Assembly: GCA_031316235.1 (NCBI GenBank)
Contig: JALDRA010000001.1
Coordinates: 3,750,001-3,782,000 of the forward strand
Direction: 5' to 3'
Source of the DNA: Candidatus Scalindua sp.
GTDB taxonomy: Bacteria > Planctomycetota > Brocadiia > Brocadiales > Scalinduaceae
Length of the DNA: 32,000 nucleotides
Shown here in pieces: positions 1,766 through 31,765 of the stretch (position 1 is the stretch's first letter; every line of letters starts with the position of its first letter). Under the pieces are notes generated by a model. That model was not told the origin of the DNA, searched no databases, and saw nothing but the letters and a program-made list of their open reading frames with translations. The translations under genes and the position numbers were made by a program.

Positions 1766-2227
1766 CTATATCCTGACTCCCACCTTCTTAAACTCTTTTT
1801 CACTGTATAGGATTACGTAGTCATTCAGACCTGTTTCCTGTTTTATTCGTGCGATAACGTCCTCACACTCTTCATCTGTGTATCCATGGATCATGGTGAA
1901 AACATTGTACTCCCAATCAGGAAATGTAGGTCTTTCGTAACAGTGTGTTACCTCCTCAAAAGCAGCCATAATCTTTCCGCATTCATCCACCCTGTTGCAT
2001 GGGACTTTCCACACAGTCATTGCATTTGAGTTGATGCCAATCATTCTATGGGCAATCGATGCTGCCAGACGTCTGATTTTCCCTTCTTTCAAGAGTTTTT
2101 TTGTTCTGTCGATTACCTCCTGCTCGGTTATCCCCATGGAAACACTGATATCTTTATATGGTGTTTTTGTAAGAGGGATGCCGTCCTGCATATATTTTAT
2201 CAGTTCTATATCTTTAACTTCGCTCAA
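1766..2227 (-). CDS. Siroheme decarboxylase subunit (AhbA/AhbB, NirD/L/G/H family; AsnC/Lrp-like fold)
   Basis: 153 aa. It has an N-terminal HTH-like LIKYMQDGIPLTKTPYKDISVSMGITEQEVIDRTKKLLKEGKIRRL and a C-terminal VTHCYERP...NVFTMIH pattern typical of NirD/AhbA-type proteins. It is paired with a paralogue immediately upstream. Confidence 0.7.
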   Translation of the reverse strand: MSEVKDIELIKYMQDGIPLTKTPYKDISVSMGITEQEVIDRTKKLLKEGKIRRLAASIAHRMIGINSNAMTVWKVPCNRVDECGKIMAAFEEVTHCYERPTFPDWEYNVFTMIHGYTDEECEDVIARIKQETGLNDYVILYSEKEFKKVGVRI

Positions 2228-2321
2228 CTCTGAACTCCTTATTGTTTTAAATTTTGTACCCGTGAAGATTGATCACCTCTCACCTGAGATGAGGTACAGA
2301 TTGTTTTCATGAAAAAGAAGA

Positions 2322-2789
2322 TTAACAAATTTTGAATTTTACCCCAATCTTGAATTTTTTTGTAGTTGGCAGACAACGAACTTGCAAACCCGTTCTCTCT
2401 TCTATTTCCTCGATGTTTTCCTGAAGCTTTTCTTTTGTGGGTGCAGACATCGTAAACCAGATATTAAGCGGGATGGGATGGTTCTTACCCTTCCTGAGGT
2501 AGTTATGGGAGACACCGCTATAGCCGTTAATAATTTCGCTTACCTCTCCTATCTTATCCTCCGGTACCTTCATTGCAGCCAGAGTGGCACTGTTGCCTAC
2601 GGCCTGGGTATTTATGATGGGGGCAAGGCGGCGCACGTATTTCCCCTCAATCATAAACTTTATTCTTTCAATTACTAAATCTTCATCTAGATCCAGCTCC
2701 CTGGCAAGATCGAGAAAAGGCCTGTTTGTCAGGGGTAGATTTGTTTGAATTCTTTGCAGTATTTTTTTATCAGTTACACTAAGAGCCAT
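2322..2789 (-). CDS. Siroheme decarboxylase subunit (AhbA/AhbB, NirD/L/G/H family)
   Basis: 155 aa. It shows ILQRIQTNLPLTNRPFLDLARELDLDEDLVIERIKFMIEGKYVRRL, VSHNYLR and NIWFTM motifs, the classic two-gene AhbAB/NirDL-GH arrangement. Confidence 0.7.
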   Translation of the reverse strand: MALSVTDKKILQRIQTNLPLTNRPFLDLARELDLDEDLVIERIKFMIEGKYVRRLAPIINTQAVGNSATLAAMKVPEDKIGEVSEIINGYSGVSHNYLRKGKNHPIPLNIWFTMSAPTKEKLQENIEEIEERTGLQVRCLPTTKKFKIGVKFKIC

Positions 2790-2831
2790 TTTTTTTCGTT
2801 TCGTATTGTATTGGAGTGTTATAAAATTAGA

Positions 2832-3854
2832 TTAAGTGCACATCATCTTTTTTTGGTCAGCGTGGCGTAGCGGATTGTAATCTTCACTAACCAGCCTTCT
2901 CTTAAATTCATCAATCCCTAATCTTTCAACTAATGTTCCGAATCGTTTTTCCTTTTTCTCAGTGAGTATAGCGTCTATGCATATGTCAAGGGCCCTGAGC
3001 ACTTCTGACTCGTCTGCAAACTCGATAAGGTCATCAGCAAAGCGTGGATGCCTTCCTAATTTACCTCCTATCATCACGCGAAAACGGTTCTTATCCTTTT
3101 TTATCGTACCAGTAGGACACACTTCCGCGCAGAGACCGCAGTGGAGGCAGCGGTTGTATTGTATGGTAACTTCCCGTTTTTTTTCATCAGAAGGAGGAGT
3201 TTCCCCCTCGATTGATGTACCCTGATGCTGATTTGACAAGCCTGCTATCTTGATCGCATTTTCCTTACAGGACCTCAGACAGTTTCTGCATCCAATGCAC
3301 GCAATCTCCCTGTCTACTTCCACCTTTGCCCTGACGTGGACACCGAAGTCCTTTATCTGCGGCTGTGAGCAGGAGTTCGGGCAGCTGGCTAATGCTATCT
3401 TCAGTCTCTGATGCGGAAGGATCTTGCCTTCAATCCTGTTTATAAGCAGCCTGCTGAAGCCTACTTCCCTCAGCCTGTCTTTTATCTTCTGTAAAAGTCC
3501 TTTAAGCCCCATGATTAAAAACGGGCAGTCTACCTCTTCACCGCGACACACACTTATGTTGTACATTGCCGGGTACCCATCTTCCAGCTCGAATTCTCCA
3601 GATCTCTTAAGAAGTTCATACTTGTCATCCTCTATACAAGGATCTGTGGAAAACGGGTCGGCACTTTTTATATCGCCATTATCACCATCACCCTTTGTCC
3701 CCATAAAACCAGCTTTCGCCTCTTCGACATCAGTGACGCTGACAGTAGTTTTTCCTCTCTCACTTGCAAACTTTTCTATCTTTGTGCGTGCAAGCCTGCG
3801 TACAAAAACAGGAACTTTTTCCAACCTTGCACGTGCTTCATCATCCCATTCCAT
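2832..3854 (-). CDS. Fe-S protein: N-terminal PCP_red-like domain fused to a sulfite/nitrite-reductase-like (Dsr-LP-type) module with an inserted 2x[4Fe-4S] ferredoxin domain
   Basis: I place the start at MEWDDEARARLEKVPVFVRRLARTKIEKFASERGKTTVSVTDVEEAK, which fits the PF08369 pattern W..eA...L.kvP.FVR. A siroheme-type Cys pattern is present (CRGEEVDC ... SCPNSC). There are two ferredoxin motifs, CIGCRNCLRSC and CLHCGLCAEVCP, followed by MIGGKLGRHP. The upstream 23 codons of ORF 2832..3923 look non-coding. Confidence 0.6.
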   Translation of the reverse strand: MEWDDEARARLEKVPVFVRRLARTKIEKFASERGKTTVSVTDVEEAKAGFMGTKGDGDNGDIKSADPFSTDPCIEDDKYELLKRSGEFELEDGYPAMYNISVCRGEEVDCPFLIMGLKGLLQKIKDRLREVGFSRLLINRIEGKILPHQRLKIALASCPNSCSQPQIKDFGVHVRAKVEVDREIACIGCRNCLRSCKENAIKIAGLSNQHQGTSIEGETPPSDEKKREVTIQYNRCLHCGLCAEVCPTGTIKKDKNRFRVMIGGKLGRHPRFADDLIEFADESEVLRALDICIDAILTEKKEKRFGTLVERLGIDEFKRRLVSEDYNPLRHADQKKMMCT

Positions 3855-4041
3855 AGAGCAAATTAATCCTTTAAAAACCGCAGTGTATCGAATTGAAACA
3901 ATACAACTCTGATAGTAATTCAAAAAAGTAAGTGTACAGTTTGAGCCATTAAATCGAGATACGGCATGACAGCAAAAACGATACGTGAAATCTTATTATA
4001 TTTTAATCAGATAACTAGTCAAACAAAATTTAACAAATGTT

Positions 4042-4838: not shown

Positions 4839-4972
4839 ATCTAAAACTGATTTGGTTTTAGATTTTTCTAAAAATGAAATCCTGACTGCAGCTATCCCCG
4901 GACAAAAGCCGAGGGTTTTAATCGCTCCGTTTTTCACGGATTGTATCCGCAAACTATTATAAGATGAGTATA
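4839..4972 (+). mobile_element. MITE-A copy 2 (divergent, long variant)
   Basis: ...CTAAAACTGATTTGGTTTTAGATTTTTCTAAAAA...CCCCGGACAAAAGCCGAGGG...CGGATTGTATCCG...AAGATGAGTATA is collinear with the other copies. It contains the uninterrupted GATTTTTCT site that is duplicated around MITE-B in copy 4. Confidence 0.65.
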
Positions 4973-8716: not shown

Positions 8717-8883
8717 CAGTAACGTCTGGTCAGGTTTTCGCATGCACAGCATTTTGTCATACCCGAAGGTTTTTATCGGGTATCCAGAGGTTCGTGTATC
8801 TTAGATTCCCGCTAAAAACATGCGGGTATGACTGCTTTGGGCCAATAAGAGAGATCCTGCGAAAACCTGACCGGGCACTATTG
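8717..8883 (+). mobile_element. MITE-B copy 2 (167 bp, most divergent copy)
   Basis: The ends are CAGTAACGTCTGGTCAGGTTTTCGCA ... TGCGAAAACCTGACCGGGCACTATTG. The core TTTTGTCATACCCGAAGG...ATCGGGTATCCAGAGG...AGATTCCCGCTAAAAACATGCGGGTATGAC is shared with the other copies. Flanking (C/G)TTTTATT is an imperfect duplication. Confidence 0.8.
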
Positions 8884-10778: not shown

Positions 10779-10876
10779 GTATCCGTAAAAGTACCACTAT
10801 AGTCTCACCTACGTTGAGCTATCTATAATTGCTAAAAACCCTTAAAACTCACTTACAAGGTGATACCAATTTGTTA

Positions 10877-11017
10877 TATACTCATCTCATACTGGATTTC
10901 GGATTCAATCCGAGATAAAATTGAGCAAATAAAGTCCTCGGTGCCTTTTGTCCGGTGATACCATTAACCAGGCTTTGGTTTTTAGATAAATCAAAAAGCC
11001 AGATTGGTTTCAGTATA
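10877..11017 (-). mobile_element. MITE-A copy 3 (divergent, long variant)
   Basis: TATACTCATCTCATACTGGATTTCGGATTCAATCCGAGATAAAATTGAGCAAATAAAGTCCTCGGTGCCTTTTGTCCGG...GGTTTCAGTATA is collinear with the reverse complement of copies 6 and 7. Confidence 0.7.
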
Positions 11018-12856: not shown

Positions 12857-13149
12857 TATACTGAAACCGATCTGGTTTTAGATTTTTCTCAGCGTTGTCC
12901 GGTTAGGTTTTTGCGTAGGTGGCTTTTGTCATACCCGAACGTCTTTATCGGGTATCCAGAGACTCGTTTCATCATAGATTCCTGCTAAAAACATGCGGGA
13001 ATGACAGTTTTAGGGCAATAATTAAATACGCAAAAACCTAACCGGACAACGCTGGATTTTTCTAAAAACCAAATCTTGGTGAAGGTATACTCGCTCAATT
13101 TTATCTCGGATTTTATCCGAAAACCATAAACCATTATAAGATGAGTATA
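12857..13149 (+). mobile_element. MITE-A copy 4 (short variant), interrupted by MITE-B copy 3
   Basis: TATACTGAAACCGATCTGGTTTTAGATTTTTCT | insert | GATTTTTCTAAAAACCAAATCTTGGTGAAGGTATACTCGCTCAATTTTATCTCGGATTTTATCCGA...AAGATGAGTATA. Confidence 0.8.
12890..13054 (+). mobile_element. MITE-B copy 3 (165 bp), perfect ~27-bp terminal inverted repeats, 9-bp target-site duplication
   Basis: The ends are CAGCGTTGTCCGGTTAGGTTTTTGCGTA ... TACGCAAAAACCTAACCGGACAACGCTG. Direct GATTTTTCT lies at 12881..12889 and 13055..13063. Confidence 0.9.
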
Positions 13150-13875: not shown

Positions 13876-13937
13876 GAAAGATTATTTTACATTGAGACAA
13901 CTGTATGTCCATAAAAAAATAAACGCTTGTGATGGTA

Positions 13938-14047
13938 TATACATCATATAGTAGTTTTCGGATACAATCCGAGAAACAATTGAGCGAGTATACCTTCACC
14001 AAGATTTGGTTTCCGGTAAAACCGAAAACCAAATCGGTTTTAGTATA
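13938..14047 (-). mobile_element. MITE-A copy 5 (short variant, 110 bp)
   Basis: TATACATCATATAGTAGTTTTCGGATACAATCCGAGAAACAATTGAGCGAGTATACCTTCACCAAGATTTGGTTTCCGGTAAAACCGAAAACCAAATCGGTTTTAGTATA. It carries the intact ACCTTCACC site. Confidence 0.8.
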
Positions 14048-14292
14048 AATGCCAGAATTCTGTAATCACGGGAATTTCTCTGCATTTTCTCTTGAAAAAG
14101 CACTATTTGTTGTTACTATTTATTGATTAACTTTAATAGCCATATCGGAAAAGAGCAACGTTTTACTGTCGGTCTGAATATAAATTCACCTTTCTGGGAT
14201 TGTAAGAGTTCTTTCTTGCTTGAAAAGATAAACCAGCAAGGGTTTTGCGAAACGTATACAAGTAAGCAACCATTGATTATATTGTAATACTC

Positions 14293-16190: not shown

Positions 16191-16580
16191 GTGCTCTTCC
16201 GTGAAAAATGGAGAGACATGATGATAGTTTTCAGGAGAAATGAGGATAAATTCTTTTTGGCACTTGACAGGTATCCTGCTTCATTTTTCATTGAAATATT
16301 CAAGATAGGTCCGAACGTCTTGAAGTTGAAGAAGATAGGCGAGTGGAAGTTTATATTCATCGTCATGATGAGTGTGTGTCCGGAAGAGGTGCGGGTTGAT
16401 CTGGAACTTCGAGAAAACACAATCAAGGAATTACTTCTTCTCCAGCCTGAGATTAAAACCTACATCGATGAGATGGAAAAACATAAATGGATTGAAAGCG
16501 AAAAAGCCGGATATGACCTTGGCGGAAACGTACTCATCGACTGGATTTTACATTATTTATTAAATTCCCGCATATCATAA
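16191..16580 (+). CDS. Small hypothetical protein (the real start may be the MM at 16365, giving about 71 aa)
   Basis: The C-terminal part IDEMEKHKWIESEKAGYDLGGNVLIDWILHY looks like a conserved helical motif. From memory it resembles the HxWxxSExAGxDxG motif of DUF4032-type proteins, unverified. The N-terminal 58 codons look non-coding. Confidence 0.35.
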   Translation: MLFREKWRDMMIVFRRNEDKFFLALDRYPASFFIEIFKIGPNVLKLKKIGEWKFIFIVMMSVCPEEVRVDLELRENTIKELLLLQPEIKTYIDEMEKHKWIESEKAGYDLGGNVLIDWILHYLLNSRIS

Positions 16581-16846
16581 GTATAATACCAGATTCTGCA
16601 ACTCCCCACTGAATCTTTCCTGTTTACCTCTGCCATAATTGTCAGGATCTGTCTTTCTCTCTGATCCGGAGAGATTTCCATCAGGCCCCATGGCCAGGAG
16701 CAGAGAGTGTCCCGTAAATCACTATTGTCAATCAGTCGGCAAAAAGATGTTTAACCTTATGCCGGATAATCTCAACTGAAGATTTAGCTGATACTGGTGG
16801 CTATATAGCAGGTTTCTTTGCTCGCCAGCAATTATCGAGGTAATAT

Positions 16847-16985
16847 TATACTAAAACCGATTTGGTTTCCGGTTTTACCGGAAACCAAATCTTGGTGGAG
16901 GTATCCCCGGACAAAAAACGCCGAGGACTTTACTCGCTCAATTTTATCCCGGATTGTATCCGAAATCCAGTATGAGATGAGTATA
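16847..16985 (+). mobile_element. MITE-A copy 6 (long variant, 139 bp)
   Basis: TATACTAAAACC-GATTTGGTTTCCGG-TTTTA-CCGGAAACCAAATC (perfect 14-bp hairpin, 16859..16891) ...GGTATCCCCGGACAAAAAACGCCGAGGACTTTACTCGCTCAATTTTATCCCGGATTGTATCCGAAATCCAGTATGAGATGAGTATA. Confidence 0.85.
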
Positions 16986-17972
16986 TTTTAGAACTTTTGC
17001 GAAGCAGATAAAAAGTGAGTAAAAATCTACAATCTGGTTTACAAAATAATTAAACACTTGGTAAATTGAAATAATATGCTATACTTCTTTCTCAAGACTT
17101 TCTTTTAATACCTTTCAGTACACCCCGAATCAGGTGCCGTGATTTATAGAGCGAGAAACTGGGGAATGAGATGCAATCTCTATTTCCTGGGGTCCAGGGC
17201 AGATTTTCTGTAAGAATATCGGCGAAAAGTAAAGATATTGTAAATTCTTGTTGGTATGTTAGGCACCCGCTAATCATGCACATCCATCCGTTTTGGTAAC
17301 TTTCGAATAAGTTCCAAAAATGGCGAAAAACGAAACAGAAACTGTTGCACCCATTGTAAAGAATAATTAAGATTAATGTGTTTTGCTTTCACATAGAGTG
17401 TCTGATGATATAGGTTGGGAGTACTGGGACTACAAAGGAAATTGTCCCTTTTTGTGTAAACTATTATTTAAAATCAAAAATGGTAGATAGGCAGTTTGTA
17501 ACTTGCTGTAACAGATATGGTTATACAAGAATTGAGAAAAACGTGAAATATTTATGTATACTTATTCCTCTGTTTGTCCACAAAATACCCAAAAAACTTC
17601 CCCTTCGCTTGGGAGTACCTTTTTTAGTAAGTTACGTTAAGTGTATTGTTTACCATCATATCTCTGGAAAAAAAGTGAATTTGGTGTAGTATTTGCGTCT
17701 TATCGAATAAAGTGGTAATTCATAAGCATTCTCGGCACAGACGCTTATATTGGTTTTGCTCTGTAGAAAACATTGCAAATCGGAAGGCGTATGACCGTTT
17801 TCTATAAGTCGTTATGAATTAAGAGATTACGCCACAAATTCCCTGATGCGGTGAGAGAGATACGGAAAATCTATACTCCTCAATTAACATTTTAATTTTA
17901 CAAAAGTGGCAGTAAGTATCAAAGATATTAGAAAAAGTCTCAGATCTGAAAACGTGCAGGAATTGAGGTATG

Positions 17973-18111
17973 TATACTAAAACCGATTTGGTTTTCGGTT
18001 TTACCGGAAACCAAATCCTGGTGAAGGTATCCCCGGACAAAAAACGCCGAAGACTTTACTCGCTCAATTTAATCCCGGATTTTATCCGAAATACAGTATG
18101 AGATGAGAATG
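17973..18111 (+). mobile_element. MITE-A copy 7 (long variant, 139 bp)
   Basis: By manual alignment it differs from copy 6 at only about ten positions over 139 nt. It has the same orientation as copy 6. Confidence 0.85.
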
Positions 18112-18506
18112 TCTCTTCGGCAATGAGAGCGTATGGTCGATAGATGTACATCGAAAGGCTGGATAATTTCCAGTTATACCTTCAGAAGAATGTTCGAAGA
18201 TTGAAGGTGTTTCAATTTGCTGGTGCAATGGAATTAATTGTGCTCTGAGTCTTTGTAGAATTGCGATATGCATTCAAAATAGATGATAATAATAAAAAGT
18301 GCTGTAATTTTCGATTAAGGTTTCGATAATTATTGTGCCTTAGAAAACATTTGCATTATCCGCTTTAAGGGTTTTCATGGTGTAGTTGAGATGGCGGAGC
18401 TATGTGCGAATAACATATGTAACATGAGAATAGTTTATATCATACGGCCTTATATTTTAGAATTTACCATGGAAGAACAGTTTATCATTCTGACTTATTG
18501 TAATTC

Positions 18507-21516: not shown

Positions 21517-22629
21517 ATGGTACTACGAGCAAAAACGACAAATTTGTTACAAACGAAAACCTTAACAGAAAAGCAAAGAAAAAACAGTGAACTGAATACA
21601 GGAGAATCAAAGGAGGGAAATACTGTCCTCCAGTCGTATCCAAGACGTGTTATCCTGGAATTGACAAATGCATGTAACCTCAAATGCTTGATGTGTGGCA
21701 GAGATGAATCAGAATTTAACAATAGATTTTTTGATTTATCGTATTTGAAGAAGCTAGATACTGTATTGGAACATGCTGAAGAAGTTACCTTATTTGGATG
21801 GGGGGAACCGACAATACACCCAAAATTCGTCGATCTTTTAAAGTACATGGACCGCTTTCCGGTAAGGAAATATTTTGTTACAAATGGAACTCGATTGAAA
21901 AAGTTAAAAAATGCTATTTTCGATTATAATGTTGATATTATAGCCATCAGCCTTGATGGTGCAAGTGCGTTAACAAATGACAGGATTCGTGTGGGAGCGA
22001 GTTATGAGGAGATAATTACTGGTCTGTCGAGTATTGTTGAAGAAAAAAATAGACGCAAGAGCAGTTTTCCTTACATGAATTTTGTATTTACCGTTATGCA
22101 GTCAAATATTCATGAGTTGCCGGAAATGATTAAACTTGCAGCACGAATAGGATTAGAGGAGGTCAAGGTAGTTTATCTTACTGTATTCAGTGAGAGTCTG
22201 TTGCATGAGTCTTTATGGGATTCCAGCTCTGAGGTAAAGGATGTTTTTGACGAAGCGGTTCGACTATCAGAAGAATTAGGGATTAAAATAAAACTACCGT
22301 ATCTGCAGGGTGAAGATGTCGCCGGTCAACAATATCACAAGGACTGTTTTGTAGGTTGGCGCGATTTTTTTCTTGGTTCAGATGGTTATGTGCGACCTTG
22401 TCAATCTACAGCCATGAAGTTATTCAGCGATAATAGATACAGCACCTTTGAAGAGATGTGGAATTCCGCTGAATATCAGGATTTTAGAGGTCGAGTAAAC
22501 GCACATGATTCAATGCCAGAGGAGTGCAAACGATGTTACCAGTCATCGCATGCCAACTGGAATAAAAAGGAGTCTTTTATTCAAACAGGTGAGGCTTTTG
22601 CCCCAGAATGGGAAAAAAAGAAGTCATAA
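21517..22629 (+). CDS. Radical SAM enzyme with a C-terminal twitch/SPASM-like Cys-rich auxiliary domain
   Basis: The CxxxCxxC motif is in ELTNACNLKCLMCGRD. The C-terminal CFVGWRDFFLGSDGYVRPC (C-X12-G-X4-C) plus CKRC give four auxiliary cysteines. The start could also be the GTG at 21496, which overlaps the rfbF end. Confidence 0.75.
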   Translation: MVLRAKTTNLLQTKTLTEKQRKNSELNTGESKEGNTVLQSYPRRVILELTNACNLKCLMCGRDESEFNNRFFDLSYLKKLDTVLEHAEEVTLFGWGEPTIHPKFVDLLKYMDRFPVRKYFVTNGTRLKKLKNAIFDYNVDIIAISLDGASALTNDRIRVGASYEEIITGLSSIVEEKNRRKSSFPYMNFVFTVMQSNIHELPEMIKLAARIGLEEVKVVYLTVFSESLLHESLWDSSSEVKDVFDEAVRLSEELGIKIKLPYLQGEDVAGQQYHKDCFVGWRDFFLGSDGYVRPCQSTAMKLFSDNRYSTFEEMWNSAEYQDFRGRVNAHDSMPEECKRCYQSSHANWNKKESFIQTGEAFAPEWEKKKS

Positions 22630-22662
22630 GCGCAAAGAATGGATTTAATAAGGGTATTGAAG

Positions 22663-22801
22663 TATATTCATCTTACAATGGTTTTCGGATAAAATCCGAG
22701 ATAAAATTGAGCGAGTAAAGCCCTCGGCGTTTTTTGTCCGGGGATACCTTCACCAGAATTTGGTTTCCGGTAAAACCGAAAACCAAATCGGTTTTAGTAT
22801 A
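22663..22801 (-). mobile_element. MITE-A copy 8 (long variant, 139 bp)
   Basis: It is the reverse complement of the copy 6/7 consensus, TATATTCATCTTACAATGGTTTTCGGATAAAATCCGAGATAAAATTGAGCGAGTAAAGCCCTCGGCGTTTTTTGTCCGGGGATACC...GGTTTTAGTATA. Confidence 0.85.
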
Positions 22802-23169
22802 AACAGTAGTTGGAATTGAAGGGATAGTAATAAAAGAGCAAATGACCCGGGTTCGTGCGTGGAAGGATCGATGTGTGTTGTTAATCGCAGAAGTAAAAGT
22901 GATTGAGCATACAAGTGGTTGAAGAATGAAAGAAATAAAAATGCATACGTGTTGAGAAATATAGCAAAAAGGTATCAACCTGGCTCAGAGAATCTTTCAA
23001 TTATCATCATCATTTTCAATAGAAGAAATCAATGTCTCATATCTCAAAGAAACGTGCAGTACTTTCTTATCCAGGCAATATAGCAGAGAGACTAGCACGA
23101 GCATCAGGAAAAGAGTGTAATCAATCTGTATTTTGATATCCATTTACCCTGTAACCTATTAACTAATAC

Positions 23170-27584: not shown

Positions 27585-28451
27585 TTGAATTATTGTAAAC
27601 AAAATACGAGAACTTGCCGGGAAGTAATCGGTTTATTTCCTGCAGGTGGAAGGGCTTCCAGAATAGCTCCTCTGCCCTGCAGCAAAGAATTGTATCCGGT
27701 CGGATTTCATCCTGTAGGGAGAGACCGCAGCTTACGGCCCAAGGTGATTAGCCATTATTTGTTGGAGAAAATGCGGTTAGCTAATATTAGAAAGGCTTAC
27801 ATAATATTGCGTGAAGGGAAATGGGACATTCCTGCCTATTTTGGGAATGGTAAAATGCTTGACATGCACTTGGCATATCTGATGATGGATTTGCCATTTG
27901 GTGTGCCTTATACTTTAGACCAGGCATACTATTTTGTAGAAGACGCTATTATAGCCCTGGGCTTCCCCGATACGATTTTTCAGCCAGACGATGTCTTTGT
28001 AAAATTGCTTGCCAAACAGACAGAATCTGACGCTGATCTTGTGCTTGGTCTTTTTCCTGCTCTCCAGCCACATAAAACCGACATGGTGGAATTGGATGAT
28101 ATGGGCCGGATAAGCTCAATCACAATAAAACCTGGTAATACTAAACTTTTATATGCCTGGGAAACAGCTGTCTGGACCCCTGTTTTCACACGTTTTATGC
28201 ACGACTATGTATTGGACAGGCAGGTATTATGTGACGAGAACAAGATTGAAAATAATCTTGACAAACAGAAGGAATTACATGTAGGAGATATTATTCATGC
28301 TGCTATTCAAAATGATATGAAAATTGATGCAGTACTTTTTAAAGAGGGCAGCTGCTTGGATATTGGTACTCCTGATGATTTACTAAAGGCTGTTCAAATT
28401 ACAAATCAAGTTTCGTCGGACGATCAATTATTATCTTATAATGCAATATAA
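27585..28451 (+). CDS. Sugar-phosphate nucleotidyltransferase (NTP_transferase fold)
   Basis: VIGLFPAGGRASRIAPLPCSKELYPVG matches the GxGxR...K nucleotidyltransferase signature. The only in-frame start upstream of the motif is the TTG at 27585 with no obvious RBS, so the start is uncertain. Confidence 0.6.
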   Translation: MNYCKQNTRTCREVIGLFPAGGRASRIAPLPCSKELYPVGFHPVGRDRSLRPKVISHYLLEKMRLANIRKAYIILREGKWDIPAYFGNGKMLDMHLAYLMMDLPFGVPYTLDQAYYFVEDAIIALGFPDTIFQPDDVFVKLLAKQTESDADLVLGLFPALQPHKTDMVELDDMGRISSITIKPGNTKLLYAWETAVWTPVFTRFMHDYVLDRQVLCDENKIENNLDKQKELHVGDIIHAAIQNDMKIDAVLFKEGSCLDIGTPDDLLKAVQITNQVSSDDQLLSYNAI

Positions 28452-29406
28452 TAACAATTCCTATTTCTGGAAAATTATTAAGCGGCTGTCGAGAATGAAT
28501 TATTATTCTGCCAGGGCTTACTATATGCACAGGATGCATCAATTGAGCCGTCGCTATAAGGAGCCGCCTTTAATAATTTATCAAATGGGCAAAGTTGGCT
28601 CCCGAACAATCTGTAATTCATTGGAGAGTTTAAACCTGGATATGCCGATATATCATACACATGGTCTAACACGTAGTTATATCGCTGAAAGAGAAATAAG
28701 GAGCAAAAGATATTTTGGCAAAGAAGAGTCTAATTATATCCACCTTAATGTTCCTTGGAAAAGTCAATATCTTCGGAAACTGATTGACAGAGGTTTTGGT
28801 GGTAAAAAGTGTAAGGTTGTCACCCTTGTAAGAGATCCTATAGCCGTTAACATTGCCGGTTTTTTCGAAAGAATTGATAAGGTGGATTATAATGATTCTG
28901 AGCATGTATTTACAATCAAATCGATAAAAGATGAATATGAGTTTACCGGGCGGATTGATGATATGGAGTCACTAAAGCAGCTCTTCTTTGAAAAATATGC
29001 CCATGATGAGCCCTTGACATTTTACGATTGTGAGTTGAAGAGTGTTTTTGGGATCGATGTTTTTGAATGTGAGTTTCCGAAATCAGAAGGATATAAAATA
29101 TATGAGGGAGAACATGCCGATGTTTTGCTGATACGGTTAGAAAGTCTTAACGAATGCGCTCAAAAAGCATTTAAAGAGTTCTTGCATATTGAAGGGTTTA
29201 CCTTGATAAATATAAACATCGGAAGTGAAAAAGATTACGCTTATCTTTACCAGAAGTTTAAAGACCTAGTCGCTTTGCCCGATACGTACATAGATAAAAT
29301 GTATAATTCTAAGTATGCACAACATTTTTATAGTGAGGAAGAAATCGGCCGTTTTAAAACCAGATGGCTTTCTTCAAAAAAAGATAGATGCCAGCAATTG
29401 GGATAG
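28441..29406 (+). CDS. Sulfotransferase-like protein (putative glycan sulfotransferase)
   Basis: YQMGKVGSRTI resembles the 5'-PSB loop (PKxGTT type) and VVTLVRDPIAVNIAGFF resembles the 3'-PB RDP motif of PAPS-dependent sulfotransferases. The match is weak and rests on motifs only. Confidence 0.4.
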   Translation: MQYNNNSYFWKIIKRLSRMNYYSARAYYMHRMHQLSRRYKEPPLIIYQMGKVGSRTICNSLESLNLDMPIYHTHGLTRSYIAEREIRSKRYFGKEESNYIHLNVPWKSQYLRKLIDRGFGGKKCKVVTLVRDPIAVNIAGFFERIDKVDYNDSEHVFTIKSIKDEYEFTGRIDDMESLKQLFFEKYAHDEPLTFYDCELKSVFGIDVFECEFPKSEGYKIYEGEHADVLLIRLESLNECAQKAFKEFLHIEGFTLININIGSEKDYAYLYQKFKDLVALPDTYIDKMYNSKYAQHFYSEEEIGRFKTRWLSSKKDRCQQLG

Positions 29407-29427: not shown

Positions 29428-29494
29428 AGAGACGAAAATAAAGAGAATTTCTTAACCAGTCTTAATGTTAAAGTCTCTTATTTTCGTTTTTTTT
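29428..29494 (+). terminator. Long AT-rich hairpin followed by a T7-8 run (intrinsic terminator-like)
   Basis: ACGAAAATAAAGAGA (29432..29446) pairs with TCTCTTATTTTCGT (29474..29487) with one bulge. An inner stem is CTTAAC/GTTAAAG. The structure is followed by TTTTTTT (29488..29494). Confidence 0.45.
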
Positions 29495-29534: not shown

Positions 29535-30788
29535 ATGAAGAATAAACAGATGAATTCATTGAAAACATATATGAGAACCAGGTATCCTGGGTTCTGGAAC
29601 CTCCTGAGAAAATTTAAAAAGAACACTGTAGTTCCGATTGTCGCCTTTTTCTCAGATCTCTACCTCAATAGCCGGTTTTTTCTCAGGAGAAGAAAGGGGT
29701 TTTCATCTGTACCGTGCCTGGTTCCATTTATGCGTTTGGAATTTCAGAAATTGGGAAGTGTTTCTACGTGCTGCACCGCCTTTACAAAAGTTAAATCTGT
29801 GGGGGATATGAAAACGCAGACAATTGAACAGATATGGAATGGAAGAAAAATAAGGAGGTTTCGAAAACAATTATTATTGGGACAAACATGTAAAGTATGC
29901 ATGCCAAATTGTGGTTATTTGAAGATTGGACCGATCTTTATTAAAGATATCTGCACTGACACACCAGAAGGAAAATCGCTTTATGATGATATTTCTCATG
30001 GGAGGGCAAAAATCAATTCACACCCTCTCAGGTTTAACCTTGCGAATTTTACGGTATGCAATCTCAATTGTGTCATGTGTCAATCCAGAGCTGTCGAAGC
30101 TCAAAATAAATCTATTCCCGAGTATGTAACAAAGACCCATGAAAACCTCAGGAACTATTTTGACAAGAAGATTACGCTCTATTTGTCAGGCAATGGTGAA
30201 GTCCTGGCCAGAAAGGACACGCGGGAACTTCTTCAGAATTTTGACAGTAAAAAATACAGTAAAGTTGATTTTCAGATCATAACAAACGGATTACTGTTTC
30301 AACCACGCATGTGGGAGACAATCAAACATAACAATTTTACCTACGCAAATATCTCAATAGATGCCGCAACGAAGGAGACGTATCAGAAAGTGAGACGTGG
30401 TGGGAACTGGGACCAATTGTTGGAAGCTTTGCAGGTATTTAAAAAAGCAAAAGAAGAGGGTAAATTTAGCAGTGTCAACATGAATATGACAGTTATGAAA
30501 AGTAATTTCAGAGAAATACCCCAATTTATTGAAATGGCGCGTGCAAGAGGATTCAATTCTCTGTTTACCAAGATCCGGGGGCCATTTAATGACGAAAATA
30601 TATTTGAATCAGATAATGAGGAAGCCCTTCAAGAACTAAAAGCGGTACTCTCTGATTCGAATCTTTATGGTGAAGATGTTGATATGAATGAACTACTCAA
30701 ATATATCCCTGAAAAATTCCATAAACGAATGGGGAATCACCTTACTTCAATATGGTACCCGGCATTTTTATTGAAAAAGCGTGAATAA
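29535..30788 (+). CDS. Radical SAM enzyme with an N-terminal twitch/SPASM-like Cys-rich domain (permuted order relative to 21517..22629)
   Basis: The N-terminal CLVPFMRLEFQKLGSVSTC (C-X12-G-X4-C) and CKVCMPNC come first, then the radical SAM motif NFTVCNLNCVMCQ. There are no cysteines after the core. I prefer the ATG at 29535, because the TTG at 29493 lies inside the terminator T-run. Confidence 0.7.
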   Translation: MKNKQMNSLKTYMRTRYPGFWNLLRKFKKNTVVPIVAFFSDLYLNSRFFLRRRKGFSSVPCLVPFMRLEFQKLGSVSTCCTAFTKVKSVGDMKTQTIEQIWNGRKIRRFRKQLLLGQTCKVCMPNCGYLKIGPIFIKDICTDTPEGKSLYDDISHGRAKINSHPLRFNLANFTVCNLNCVMCQSRAVEAQNKSIPEYVTKTHENLRNYFDKKITLYLSGNGEVLARKDTRELLQNFDSKKYSKVDFQIITNGLLFQPRMWETIKHNNFTYANISIDAATKETYQKVRRGGNWDQLLEALQVFKKAKEEGKFSSVNMNMTVMKSNFREIPQFIEMARARGFNSLFTKIRGPFNDENIFESDNEEALQELKAVLSDSNLYGEDVDMNELLKYIPEKFHKRMGNHLTSIWYPAFLLKKRE

Positions 30789-30934
30789 GGTCTGTGGTTT
30801 TTCACATGATTTTTTTTGAACCTGGAGTGGCGGTATATTTGATTTGTATGAAAAACAGGGTTTTTATTAAAAGGAATTTAAGGATAGAGATAATAAGTTT
30901 TTTAAGATTGAATTAATTGAGGTATAGAAATAGG

Positions 30935-31765
30935 ATGGAATTAAATAGCGATATGCGAACCATTATTAAACCAAGATCTGGATGGGAATTATTAAATTTA
31001 AGAGAACTGATAGAATACAGGGACCTGTTTTTTTTTACTGTCTGGCGTGATATCACAGCTCAATACGCTCAAACGGTTTTGGGCTTTTCATGGGCCATAA
31101 TCCAACCACTCGTGCAGATTGTACTTTTCTCCATTATATTCGGAAAGATTGCCAGGGTGTCTACAGACGGTGTCCCTTATCTCTTGTTTTCAAGTGTGGC
31201 GATCATACCCTGGACATACATGTCTCAGAGCATGACGATGTCTAGCCAGAGCCTTGTTCTGGGGTCGAAGATGCTTGGGAAGATATATTTTCCCAGGTTA
31301 ATCTACCCCATAACACCAGTTTTGTCTAATCTGGTAAATTTCGGTATTTCTATTATAATTATATTCTTCATAATGTTTTATTACCGTGTTTCCCCCACAT
31401 GGAACCTGCTTTATTTGCCATTGTTTTTTGTTATGATGATATCTGTTCCTCTTAGTGCAGGTCTGTGGCTATCTTCCCTCGCTATTCGCTATCGTGATGT
31501 AAAACATGGTATGCCCTTTTTTATCCAGATACTGATGTACACAGCGCCAATAGTATATACTGCTTCATCAGTACCTGAAAAATATCGCATGATCTACTCA
31601 ATAAATCCGATAGTAGGGGTTATTGAAGGATATAGGGCCTGTTTGCTCGGTACCGCTGTGCCCTGGCTTTATATCTGGCCAGGAATGGTTACAGCTGTCA
31701 TCCTGGTCATAAGCGGTGCATTTTATTTCAGGCGGTTTGAAAAAATTATTGTAGACGTTATTTAA
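30935..31765 (+). CDS. wzm: ABC-2 type polysaccharide exporter permease (Wzm/KpsM/TagG family)
   Basis: ELIEYRDLFFFTVWRDITAQYAQTVLGFSWAIIQPL is the typical N-terminal motif. About six hydrophobic helices follow. Confidence 0.8.
   Translation: MELNSDMRTIIKPRSGWELLNLRELIEYRDLFFFTVWRDITAQYAQTVLGFSWAIIQPLVQIVLFSIIFGKIARVSTDGVPYLLFSSVAIIPWTYMSQSMTMSSQSLVLGSKMLGKIYFPRLIYPITPVLSNLVNFGISIIIIFFIMFYYRVSPTWNLLYLPLFFVMMISVPLSAGLWLSSLAIRYRDVKHGMPFFIQILMYTAPIVYTASSVPEKYRMIYSINPIVGVIEGYRACLLGTAVPWLYIWPGMVTAVILVISGAFYFRRFEKIIVDVI

Follow-up and report, generated by a model that had tools for sequence, protein, structure and literature searches.

The window analysed here, a stretch of 32,000 nucleotides from Candidatus Scalindua sp. 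(contig JALDRA010000001.1, positions 3,750,001 to 3,782,000 of the forward strand), encodes near its right-hand end a radical SAM protein, designated RS2, in which a cysteine-rich auxiliary module stands in front of the radical SAM core. We conclude that RS2 is probably an enzyme of an N-terminal-twitch (N-twitch) group of radical SAM proteins and acts on a glycan, with the NCBIfam family NF033640 (N_Twi_rSAM) representing a curated subfamily of the same group. A first-pass annotation of this DNA had described RS2 and a second radical SAM protein of the window, RS1, as close paralogues that carry the module at opposite ends, and had proposed a circular permutation or domain swap. The sequence strings on which it relied were all found in the two proteins, and RS2 indeed lacks any cysteine behind the core, as it had stated. 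The features of the RS2 gene are as follows.

29535..30788, plus strand: RS2, N-terminal-twitch radical SAM enzyme of 417 amino acids (open reading frame (ORF); Pfam SPASM, then Radical_SAM)
29535..29699, plus strand: residues 1-55, long N-terminal helix (helices 2-16 and 18-54 of the AlphaFold2 (AF2) model; alignment A1)
29700..29924, plus strand: residues 56-130, twitch (half-SPASM) module (Pfam SPASM 61-122; near-invariant cysteines; BtrN alignment; AF2)
30012..30584, plus strand: residues 160-350, radical SAM partial (beta/alpha)6 barrel (PF04055 174-334; AF2)
30057-30080, plus strand: CxxxCxxC motif C175/C179/C182 (all three cysteines invariant)
30585..30785, plus strand: residues 351-417, cysteine-free helical C-terminal tail (cysteine positions; twitch hidden Markov model (HMM))

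The ORF first opens at a TTG codon at position 29493, and the count of 417 residues runs from the ATG at 29535. An alternative start, Met6 (29550), is used by a database protein of 100% identity (P0001) and by the Scalindua orthologue, and this may be the true start of RS2.

The N-terminal segment of RS2 is, as judged from its sequence, a true twitch-type module for a single cluster. The cysteines of the protein are located at positions 61, 79, 80, 119, 122, 126, 140, 175, 179 and 182, and none follows the CxxxCxxC motif, in which C182 is the last. Searches with Pfam models placed SPASM at residues 61-122 (PF13186, 38.5 bits at a gathering threshold of 21.5) and Radical_SAM at residues 174-334 (PF04055, 63.9 bits at a threshold of 29.5). 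The module reads C61-x12-G74-x4-C79-C80 ... C122-x3-C126, and the five cysteines in this pattern are the ones that are conserved in alignments of the relatives of RS2, including an alignment of 88 sequences (A2) from which separate twitch and core HMMs were built. Across the same 88 relatives, C175-x3-C179-x2-C182 is invariant. The module thus shows all elements by which a SPASM/twitch domain is defined, namely C-x9-15-G-x4-C, a beta-hairpin, a helix, distal cysteines and a PF13186 score above gathering. It departs from the canonical C-terminal placement of such domains, as it covers residues 61-126 and the core begins at about residue 160. A full two-cluster SPASM domain, with seven to eight cysteines including a C-x2-C-x5-C-x3-C motif, was ruled out for RS2 in view of its five conserved cysteines. 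The 'CKVC' string that had been put forward as a motif of the module held up in part: its C122 is conserved, but its C119 is not conserved among the relatives.

The order of the two modules in RS2 is the reverse of that in RS1, which is encoded about 8 kb upstream.

21517..22629, plus strand: RS1, canonical-order radical SAM/twitch enzyme of 370 amino acids (Pfam; PqqE; RS2-family HMMs)
21628-22170, plus strand: core of RS1, residues 38-218 (RS2-family core HMM)
22342-22545, plus strand: twitch module of RS1, residues 276-343 (RS2-family twitch HMM; Pfam SPASM)

In RS1, Pfam places Radical_SAM at residues 48-180 and SPASM after it at residues 277-341 (45.4 bits), both above gathering. The suggested HMM search therefore gave SPASM before Radical_SAM in RS2 and after it in RS1, with all four matches above threshold and far outside what chance would produce. 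RS1 has cysteines at positions 53, 57, 60, 277, 295, 337 and 340, and the last four are likely to be cluster ligands. The equivalence of the cysteine-rich N-terminal segment of RS2 with the C-terminal module of RS1, as claimed by the first-pass annotation, was borne out. The pairwise comparison of the two modules with BLASTP aligned RS1 277-340 with RS2 61-123 (E 0.016), and the RS2-family twitch HMM matched RS1 276-332 at 25 bits (E 9e-10, for a search of a single sequence). The core HMM of the family matched RS1 38-218 at 108 bits, and the cores of the two proteins align at an E-value of 2e-15.

BtrN is the archetypal twitch enzyme, and the definition of the twitch domain goes back to it. 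This protein was also the best match to the RS2-family profile among the sequences in the PDB, and it was matched in two stretches of swapped order: profile positions 107-229 correspond to BtrN 19-142, and profile positions 5-83 to BtrN 165-243, although both matches are weak at about 33 bits each. The auxiliary ligands C169, C187, C232 and C235 of BtrN align with C61, C79, C122 and C126 of RS2. The swapped order is therefore real, because the N-terminal module of RS2 is homologous to the C-terminal modules of both RS1 and BtrN.

RS1 and RS2 are nevertheless not close paralogues, because their cores are only 24% identical and because the corresponding locus of Candidatus Scalindua sp. AMX11 keeps an orthologue of RS2 without RS1. 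From these comparisons, RS1 is to be regarded as a distant relative of RS2 and not as a recent duplicate, and the two proteins of the window are best seen as tailoring enzymes that were recruited separately.

We then considered how common the twitch-first order is. A phmmer search with RS2 against 1.84 billion cluster representatives returned 14,969 matches at E≤1e-3, 4,087 at E≤1e-10 and 119 at E≤1e-30. Of the best 150 matches, the majority run without interruption from about residue 57-61 of RS2 through the core. In most relatives, RS2 included, the spacing between C-x9-15-G-x4-C and CxxxCxxC is 105-120 residues, and the full C-x12-G-x4-C ... C-x3-C pattern is kept in more than 100 of them. 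When the twitch (T) and core (R) HMMs were run on 182 collected proteins, the order T-R was found in 151. The remainder comprised 11 proteins with R only (mostly fragments), T-R-T-R in six, R-T-R-T in five, R-T in four, R-T-T-R in two, and T-R-R-T, R-T-R and (R-T)x3 in one each. The homologue survey thus turned up both orders as well as tandem and mixed forms, in which two or three complete radical SAM plus twitch units occupy one polypeptide in either register or in a mixed one. Repeats in the R-T register are present in P0062, P0066, P0079, P0102, P0116 and P0138, and repeats in the T-R register in P0069, P0088, P0111, P0117, P0125 and P0131; P0085, P0098 and P0114 are of mixed register. The CC pair (C79-C80 in RS2) was considered as a signature of N-terminal modules and was rejected, because six of ten C-type modules have it as well as 119 of 130 N-type modules.

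The same order has in fact been catalogued in NF033640. Residues 60-339 of RS2 align colinearly with positions 4-299 of this profile, and the RS1 core aligns with positions 102-305; the NF033640 model is therefore itself twitch-first. The model was matched at E<1e-20 by 73 of the 88 relatives of RS2. Ten further matches that were checked for membership of NF033640 were mostly TIGR04317-like. A true member, WP_221067113.1 on plasmid pRS11DPr1 of Methylomagnum ishizawai, was found via tblastn on annotated plasmids; it scores 174.4 bits against the cut-off of 170, has SPASM at residues 32-94 followed by Radical_SAM at 140-299, and is named 'twitch domain-containing radical SAM protein' in RefSeq. 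By its profile scores, RS2 is a relative of the NF033640 family and not a member of it, and its clade has no model of its own. The twitch-first order is thus the norm of a large, catalogued and uncharacterised family and not a peculiarity of the local pair. The view that the arrangement is unusual must therefore be given up, N-terminal placement as the norm of an already described family being what the first-pass annotation had itself named as speaking against it. Of its proposal of a circular permutation or domain swap, the homologous segments in swapped order in BtrN and RS1 remain valid, but the order is not unusual for the family.

The AF2 model of RS2 (based on alignment A2) is a single confident globule with a mean predicted local distance difference test score (pLDDT) of 94.4 and a predicted template modelling score (pTM) of 0.90. 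It consists of a helix at residues 2-54, a beta-hairpin at 67-70/75-77, helices at 97-114, six beta/alpha units that span residues 166-371 in a partial TIM-barrel fold, and a helical tail. The hairpin together with the helices at 97-114 makes up a twitch topology. A Foldseek search of the PDB with this model matched radical SAM cores alone (probability 1.00), namely those of BlsE, viperin, MoaA, anSME, SkfB and TYW1, with query TM-scores of at most 0.40. No PDB structure with the order twitch-then-core was found in this search, which aligns sequentially and in which only the core was matched. The long N-terminal helix is confined to the clade with more than 50% identity, and more distant relatives start at the twitch module. 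A role of this helix as a transmembrane anchor was rejected, as its maximal Kyte-Doolittle average over 19 residues is too low at 1.34; the helix is amphipathic instead.

The link to glycans comes from the genomic context. According to Pfam analysis of its proteins, the window contains a polysaccharide locus with genes for a PglF-like Polysacc_synt_2 dehydratase, two nucleotidyltransferases, a dTDP-sugar 3,5-epimerase-type protein, a DRL oxidoreductase, a methyltransferase, a class-III aminotransferase, an NKWYS protein and a Wzm permease. The immediate neighbours of RS2 are:

27585-28451, plus strand: nucleotidyltransferase, upstream of RS2 (Pfam; order kept in AMX11)
28441-29406, plus strand: NKWYS capsular-polysaccharide-type protein, upstream of RS2 (Pfam; order kept in AMX11)
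30917..31765, plus strand: ABC-2 (Wzm-type) polysaccharide export permease, downstream of RS2 (Pfam)

In the syntenic locus of AMX11, the RS2 orthologue is 83% identical and the gene order is nucleotidyltransferase, NKWYS, RS2, Wzm and Wzt, where the Wzt ATPase bears a Wzt_C domain. RS1 is not present in this locus. Its slot, after a nucleotidyltransferase of 258 amino acids, is taken by a nucleoside-diphosphate (NDP)-sugar 4,6-dehydratase-type gene (L001:1509-2603), and no gene of this type adjoins RS1 in the window. The middle of the locus also differs, with a DRL oxidoreductase and a DUF268-type methyltransferase in the window versus a C-methyltransferase, a DUF4910 protein and an acetyltransferase in AMX11. 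These differences suggest serotype-like variation, in which a deoxy or otherwise modified sugar may be made with the help of a radical SAM enzyme.

Other members of the group are found in similar surroundings. P0014, P0019 and the Methylomagnum protein are adjoined by glycosyltransferases, methyltransferases and Wzm/Wzt-type transporters. A second radical SAM gene also adjoins each of P0014 and P0019 (L004:4996-6300 and L005:9301-10575, the latter encoding a SPASM domain), which suggests that radical SAM pairs recur in glycan clusters. In addition, there are proteins of up to 2,689 amino acids in which the T-R module is fused to domains of the GT2, GT1/4, GT29-like, class I methyltransferase and TPR types. 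The giant proteins are P0040 (1756 amino acids), P0042 (1566), P0043 (1065), P0045 (1935), P0047 (2689) and P0050 (1892); T-R lies at or near their C-terminus, except in P0050, where it lies in mid-protein. In the three that were scanned with Pfam (P0040, P0042 and P0043), T-R stands behind methyltransferase, TPR, GT2 or GT29-like domains. In their domain make-up these fusions resemble multidomain enzymes that terminate or tailor O-antigen chains. Together, gene context and fusions point to glycan tailoring.

On this basis the following mechanism can be proposed. C175, C179 and C182 would bind the [4Fe-4S] cluster that cleaves SAM, and C61, C79 (or C80), C122 and C126 would, to judge from the conservation of the ligands, bind a fully ligated auxiliary [4Fe-4S] cluster. 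The auxiliary cluster would close the open side of the partial barrel. As this side is bounded by strand beta1 and by the beta6/alpha6 end of the core, it should be reachable from either chain end. The 5'-deoxyadenosyl radical made at the C175/C179/C182 cluster would take a hydrogen from a sugar carbon, and the twitch cluster may accept or relay the electron from the resulting sugar radical, as has been proposed for BtrN. The second cysteine of the CC pair might be a hydrogen donor or an alternative ligand. Possible substrates are a nucleotide-sugar and the O-antigen or capsule glycan, growing or terminal, that the adjacent Wzm/Wzt exports; the reaction would leave the sugar oxidised, epimerised or rearranged in another way.

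It should be noted that several observations weigh against an assignment of RS2 to a glycan-modifying N-twitch group. RS2 scores 89.6 bits on NF033640, well short of the cut-off of 170, and none of the 88 relatives of RS2 reaches this cut-off of about 170 bits. Five cysteines including the CC pair are conserved and not four, and the ligand assignment is therefore ambiguous. The homologue P0011 lies outside any obvious glycan locus. Moreover, no biochemically or structurally characterised member with the twitch-first architecture was found in the literature. Likewise, literature searches for a demonstrated function of NF033640 proteins gave none, and those for N-terminal SPASM/twitch or circularly permuted radical SAM proteins, or for radical SAM combined with O-antigen and SPASM, gave nothing relevant. 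A profile-driven search for named homologues returned generic names only. In textbook descriptions, and likewise in the overview of the RadicalSAM.org paper, SPASM/twitch domains are placed C-terminal to the barrel; the same paper mentions clusters within the SPASM/twitch megacluster that have extra conserved cysteines N-terminal to the barrel and for which structures are lacking (PMC9477430).

How did the reversed order arise? A strict circular permutation, in which a tandem R-T-R-T protein loses its outer halves to leave T-R with the cluster site as in BtrN-type enzymes, is quite conceivable, though it falls somewhat short of being probable. Such an event would account for the homology of both modules in swapped order between RS2 on the one hand and BtrN and RS1 on the other. 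It is also consistent with the natural tandems in both registers among the close relatives (R-T-R-T in five, T-R-T-R in six and (R-T)x3 in one, besides mixed forms). Since tandem fusions in both orders exist, an origin by duplication and truncation is plausible. In P0069, the central twitch module is located 59 amino acids after one core and 22 amino acids before the next, and could therefore serve either of them. Furthermore, the T-R family has proteins with a C-terminal twitch module, RS1 included, among its nearest relatives, and in the partial TIM barrel both chain ends of the core flank the open side. However, neither a relic of a lost twitch module in the C-terminal tail of RS2, where the twitch HMM scores about 1 bit, nor a relic of a lost core in its N-terminal part was detectable. 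In addition, the linkers from T to R in the R-T-R-T proteins measure about 60-540 amino acids versus about 35 in RS2. Core phylogeny does not settle the event either. A first neighbour-joining tree of the cores separated 15 of C-type, among them RS1, from a block of 160, in which 151 were N-type, but in the corrected tree the support was 22/100 and the C-type block was not recovered. In view of this bootstrap value, we make no claim on the number of permutation events.

Independent domain shuffling, by which a core that had lost its C-terminal module, or had never possessed one, acquired a twitch module at its N-terminus, appears unlikely as the origin of the T-R order. The module would in this case occupy another site or have another role, and may serve electron entry from a partner or the binding of a glycan or carrier. 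In the profile scores against PDB sequences, BlsE, viperin and MoaA indeed come nearest to the RS2-family core (52-58 bits), and BtrN comes nearest to the twitch module. The family also recombines freely with many other domains, and the mixed-order fusions show that the module is mobile. Set against this are the tight spacing of about 105-120 amino acids between the first cysteine and CxxxCxxC across very diverse relatives, the prediction of one confident globule by AF2 (pTM 0.90), and the finding that the nearest C-type relatives have both modules in common with RS2. Lastly, an artefact, be it a chance cysteine pattern, a zinc ribbon or the end of an adjacent gene that was joined on through a frameshift or a mistake of assembly, is highly improbable: apart from the general ability of cysteine-rich segments to bind zinc nothing speaks for it, and it conflicts with the SPASM score above gathering, the conservation of the cysteine pattern in more than 100 relatives, the upstream position of an NKWYS gene and not of a radical SAM gene, and the presence of the same single ORF in a Scalindua genome.

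A more far-reaching reading, which we regard as somewhat doubtful, is that the N-twitch enzymes arose by true circular permutation of a BtrN-like ancestor, with the tandem proteins as living intermediates and the cluster site preserved. Should it be right, the SPASM/twitch subgroup would have its first documented case of circular permutation. There would then be a large uncharacterised class of glycan-tailoring radical enzymes, in which the clade of RS2 would form a new subfamily associated with Wzm/Wzt-exported polysaccharides. The large reversed-order family shows that the position of the auxiliary-cluster module in the chain is flexible, and it lends itself as a natural test of the way in which the partial barrel is closed at its open side. 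With thousands of relatives at E≤1e-10 and a tie to surface glycans, the family is also a target for new radical carbohydrate chemistry. For the window itself, RS2 would be appropriately annotated as a putative radical SAM enzyme of the N-twitch type that tailors glycans and is encoded in an O-antigen or capsule locus of Scalindua-like type.

Two further observations on the window can be reported. A dispersed intergenic repeat of about 140 nucleotides, which resembles a miniature inverted-repeat transposable element (MITE) or a repetitive extragenic palindromic (REP) element, occurs in both orientations and contains short internal hairpins, for example TTTTCGGATAAAATCCGAGA. One copy directly follows the stop codon of RS1, and two lie within an ORF-poor gap at 16580-18500. 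A search of the window with Rfam gave no RNA family at the gathering threshold, and the repeat was unmatched. Copies were located at:

1397-1690, 4930-4972, 8723-8853, 10876-10962 and 12896-13127, both orientations: dispersed repeat
13936-14060, 16846-16988, 17960-18113 and 22660-22803, both orientations: dispersed repeat, continued

On the minus strand at 1766-3923, two adjoining siroheme-decarboxylase NirDL-like genes are located beside a gene for a NIR_SIR/ferredoxin-domain protein. Such a group of genes is in keeping with alternative heme or heme d1 biosynthesis in an anammox-type organism and has no connection with RS2.

Among known systems, canonical radical SAM/SPASM-twitch proteins, RS1 included, have a core and a twitch module that are homologous to those of RS2 but are arranged in the opposite order. 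RS1 is colinear with residues 27-325 of PqqE (6C8V). The models nearest to it are TIGR04317 (W_rSAM_matur), on which it scores 150.7 against a cut-off of 380, and TIGR04311 (rSAM_Geo_metal), with 119.2 against a cut-off of 400; RS1 thus stays far below both cut-offs. The tetraether synthase GDGT-MAS, for which an 'N-terminal auxiliary cluster' is described in the literature, was considered as a precedent and rejected, as only its core matched the family profile and the paper does not use the terms SPASM or twitch.

The cytosylglucuronate decarboxylase BlsE (PDB 7VOB) gives the best core match in a single stretch to the RS2 family, at 57.7 bits. It is also the best core match of the fold search, with a root-mean-square deviation of 3.7 Å over 211 columns and a query TM-score of 0.39. 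BlsE is a radical SAM enzyme that modifies a sugar-nucleoside, but the alignment is limited to the core and BlsE has no N-terminal cluster domain. The 2-deoxy-scyllo-inosamine dehydrogenase BtrN (PDB 4M7T/4M7S), the barrel of which is abridged, shares with the RS2 family the four cysteines of the auxiliary cluster and has a carbohydrate-like substrate. It differs in the C-terminal position of its twitch domain, and RS2 has an extra conserved fifth cysteine, C80. Closest in architecture is the NF033640 family as represented by WP_221067113.1, which is 23% identical to RS2 over 290 residues. As in RS2, the twitch module comes first, the core follows about 110 residues on, the hairpin motif is C-x(n)-G-x4-CC and the surrounding genes include glycosyltransferase and ABC-transporter genes, whereas RS2 is set apart by its additional N-terminal helix of 55 residues and a different C-terminal tail.

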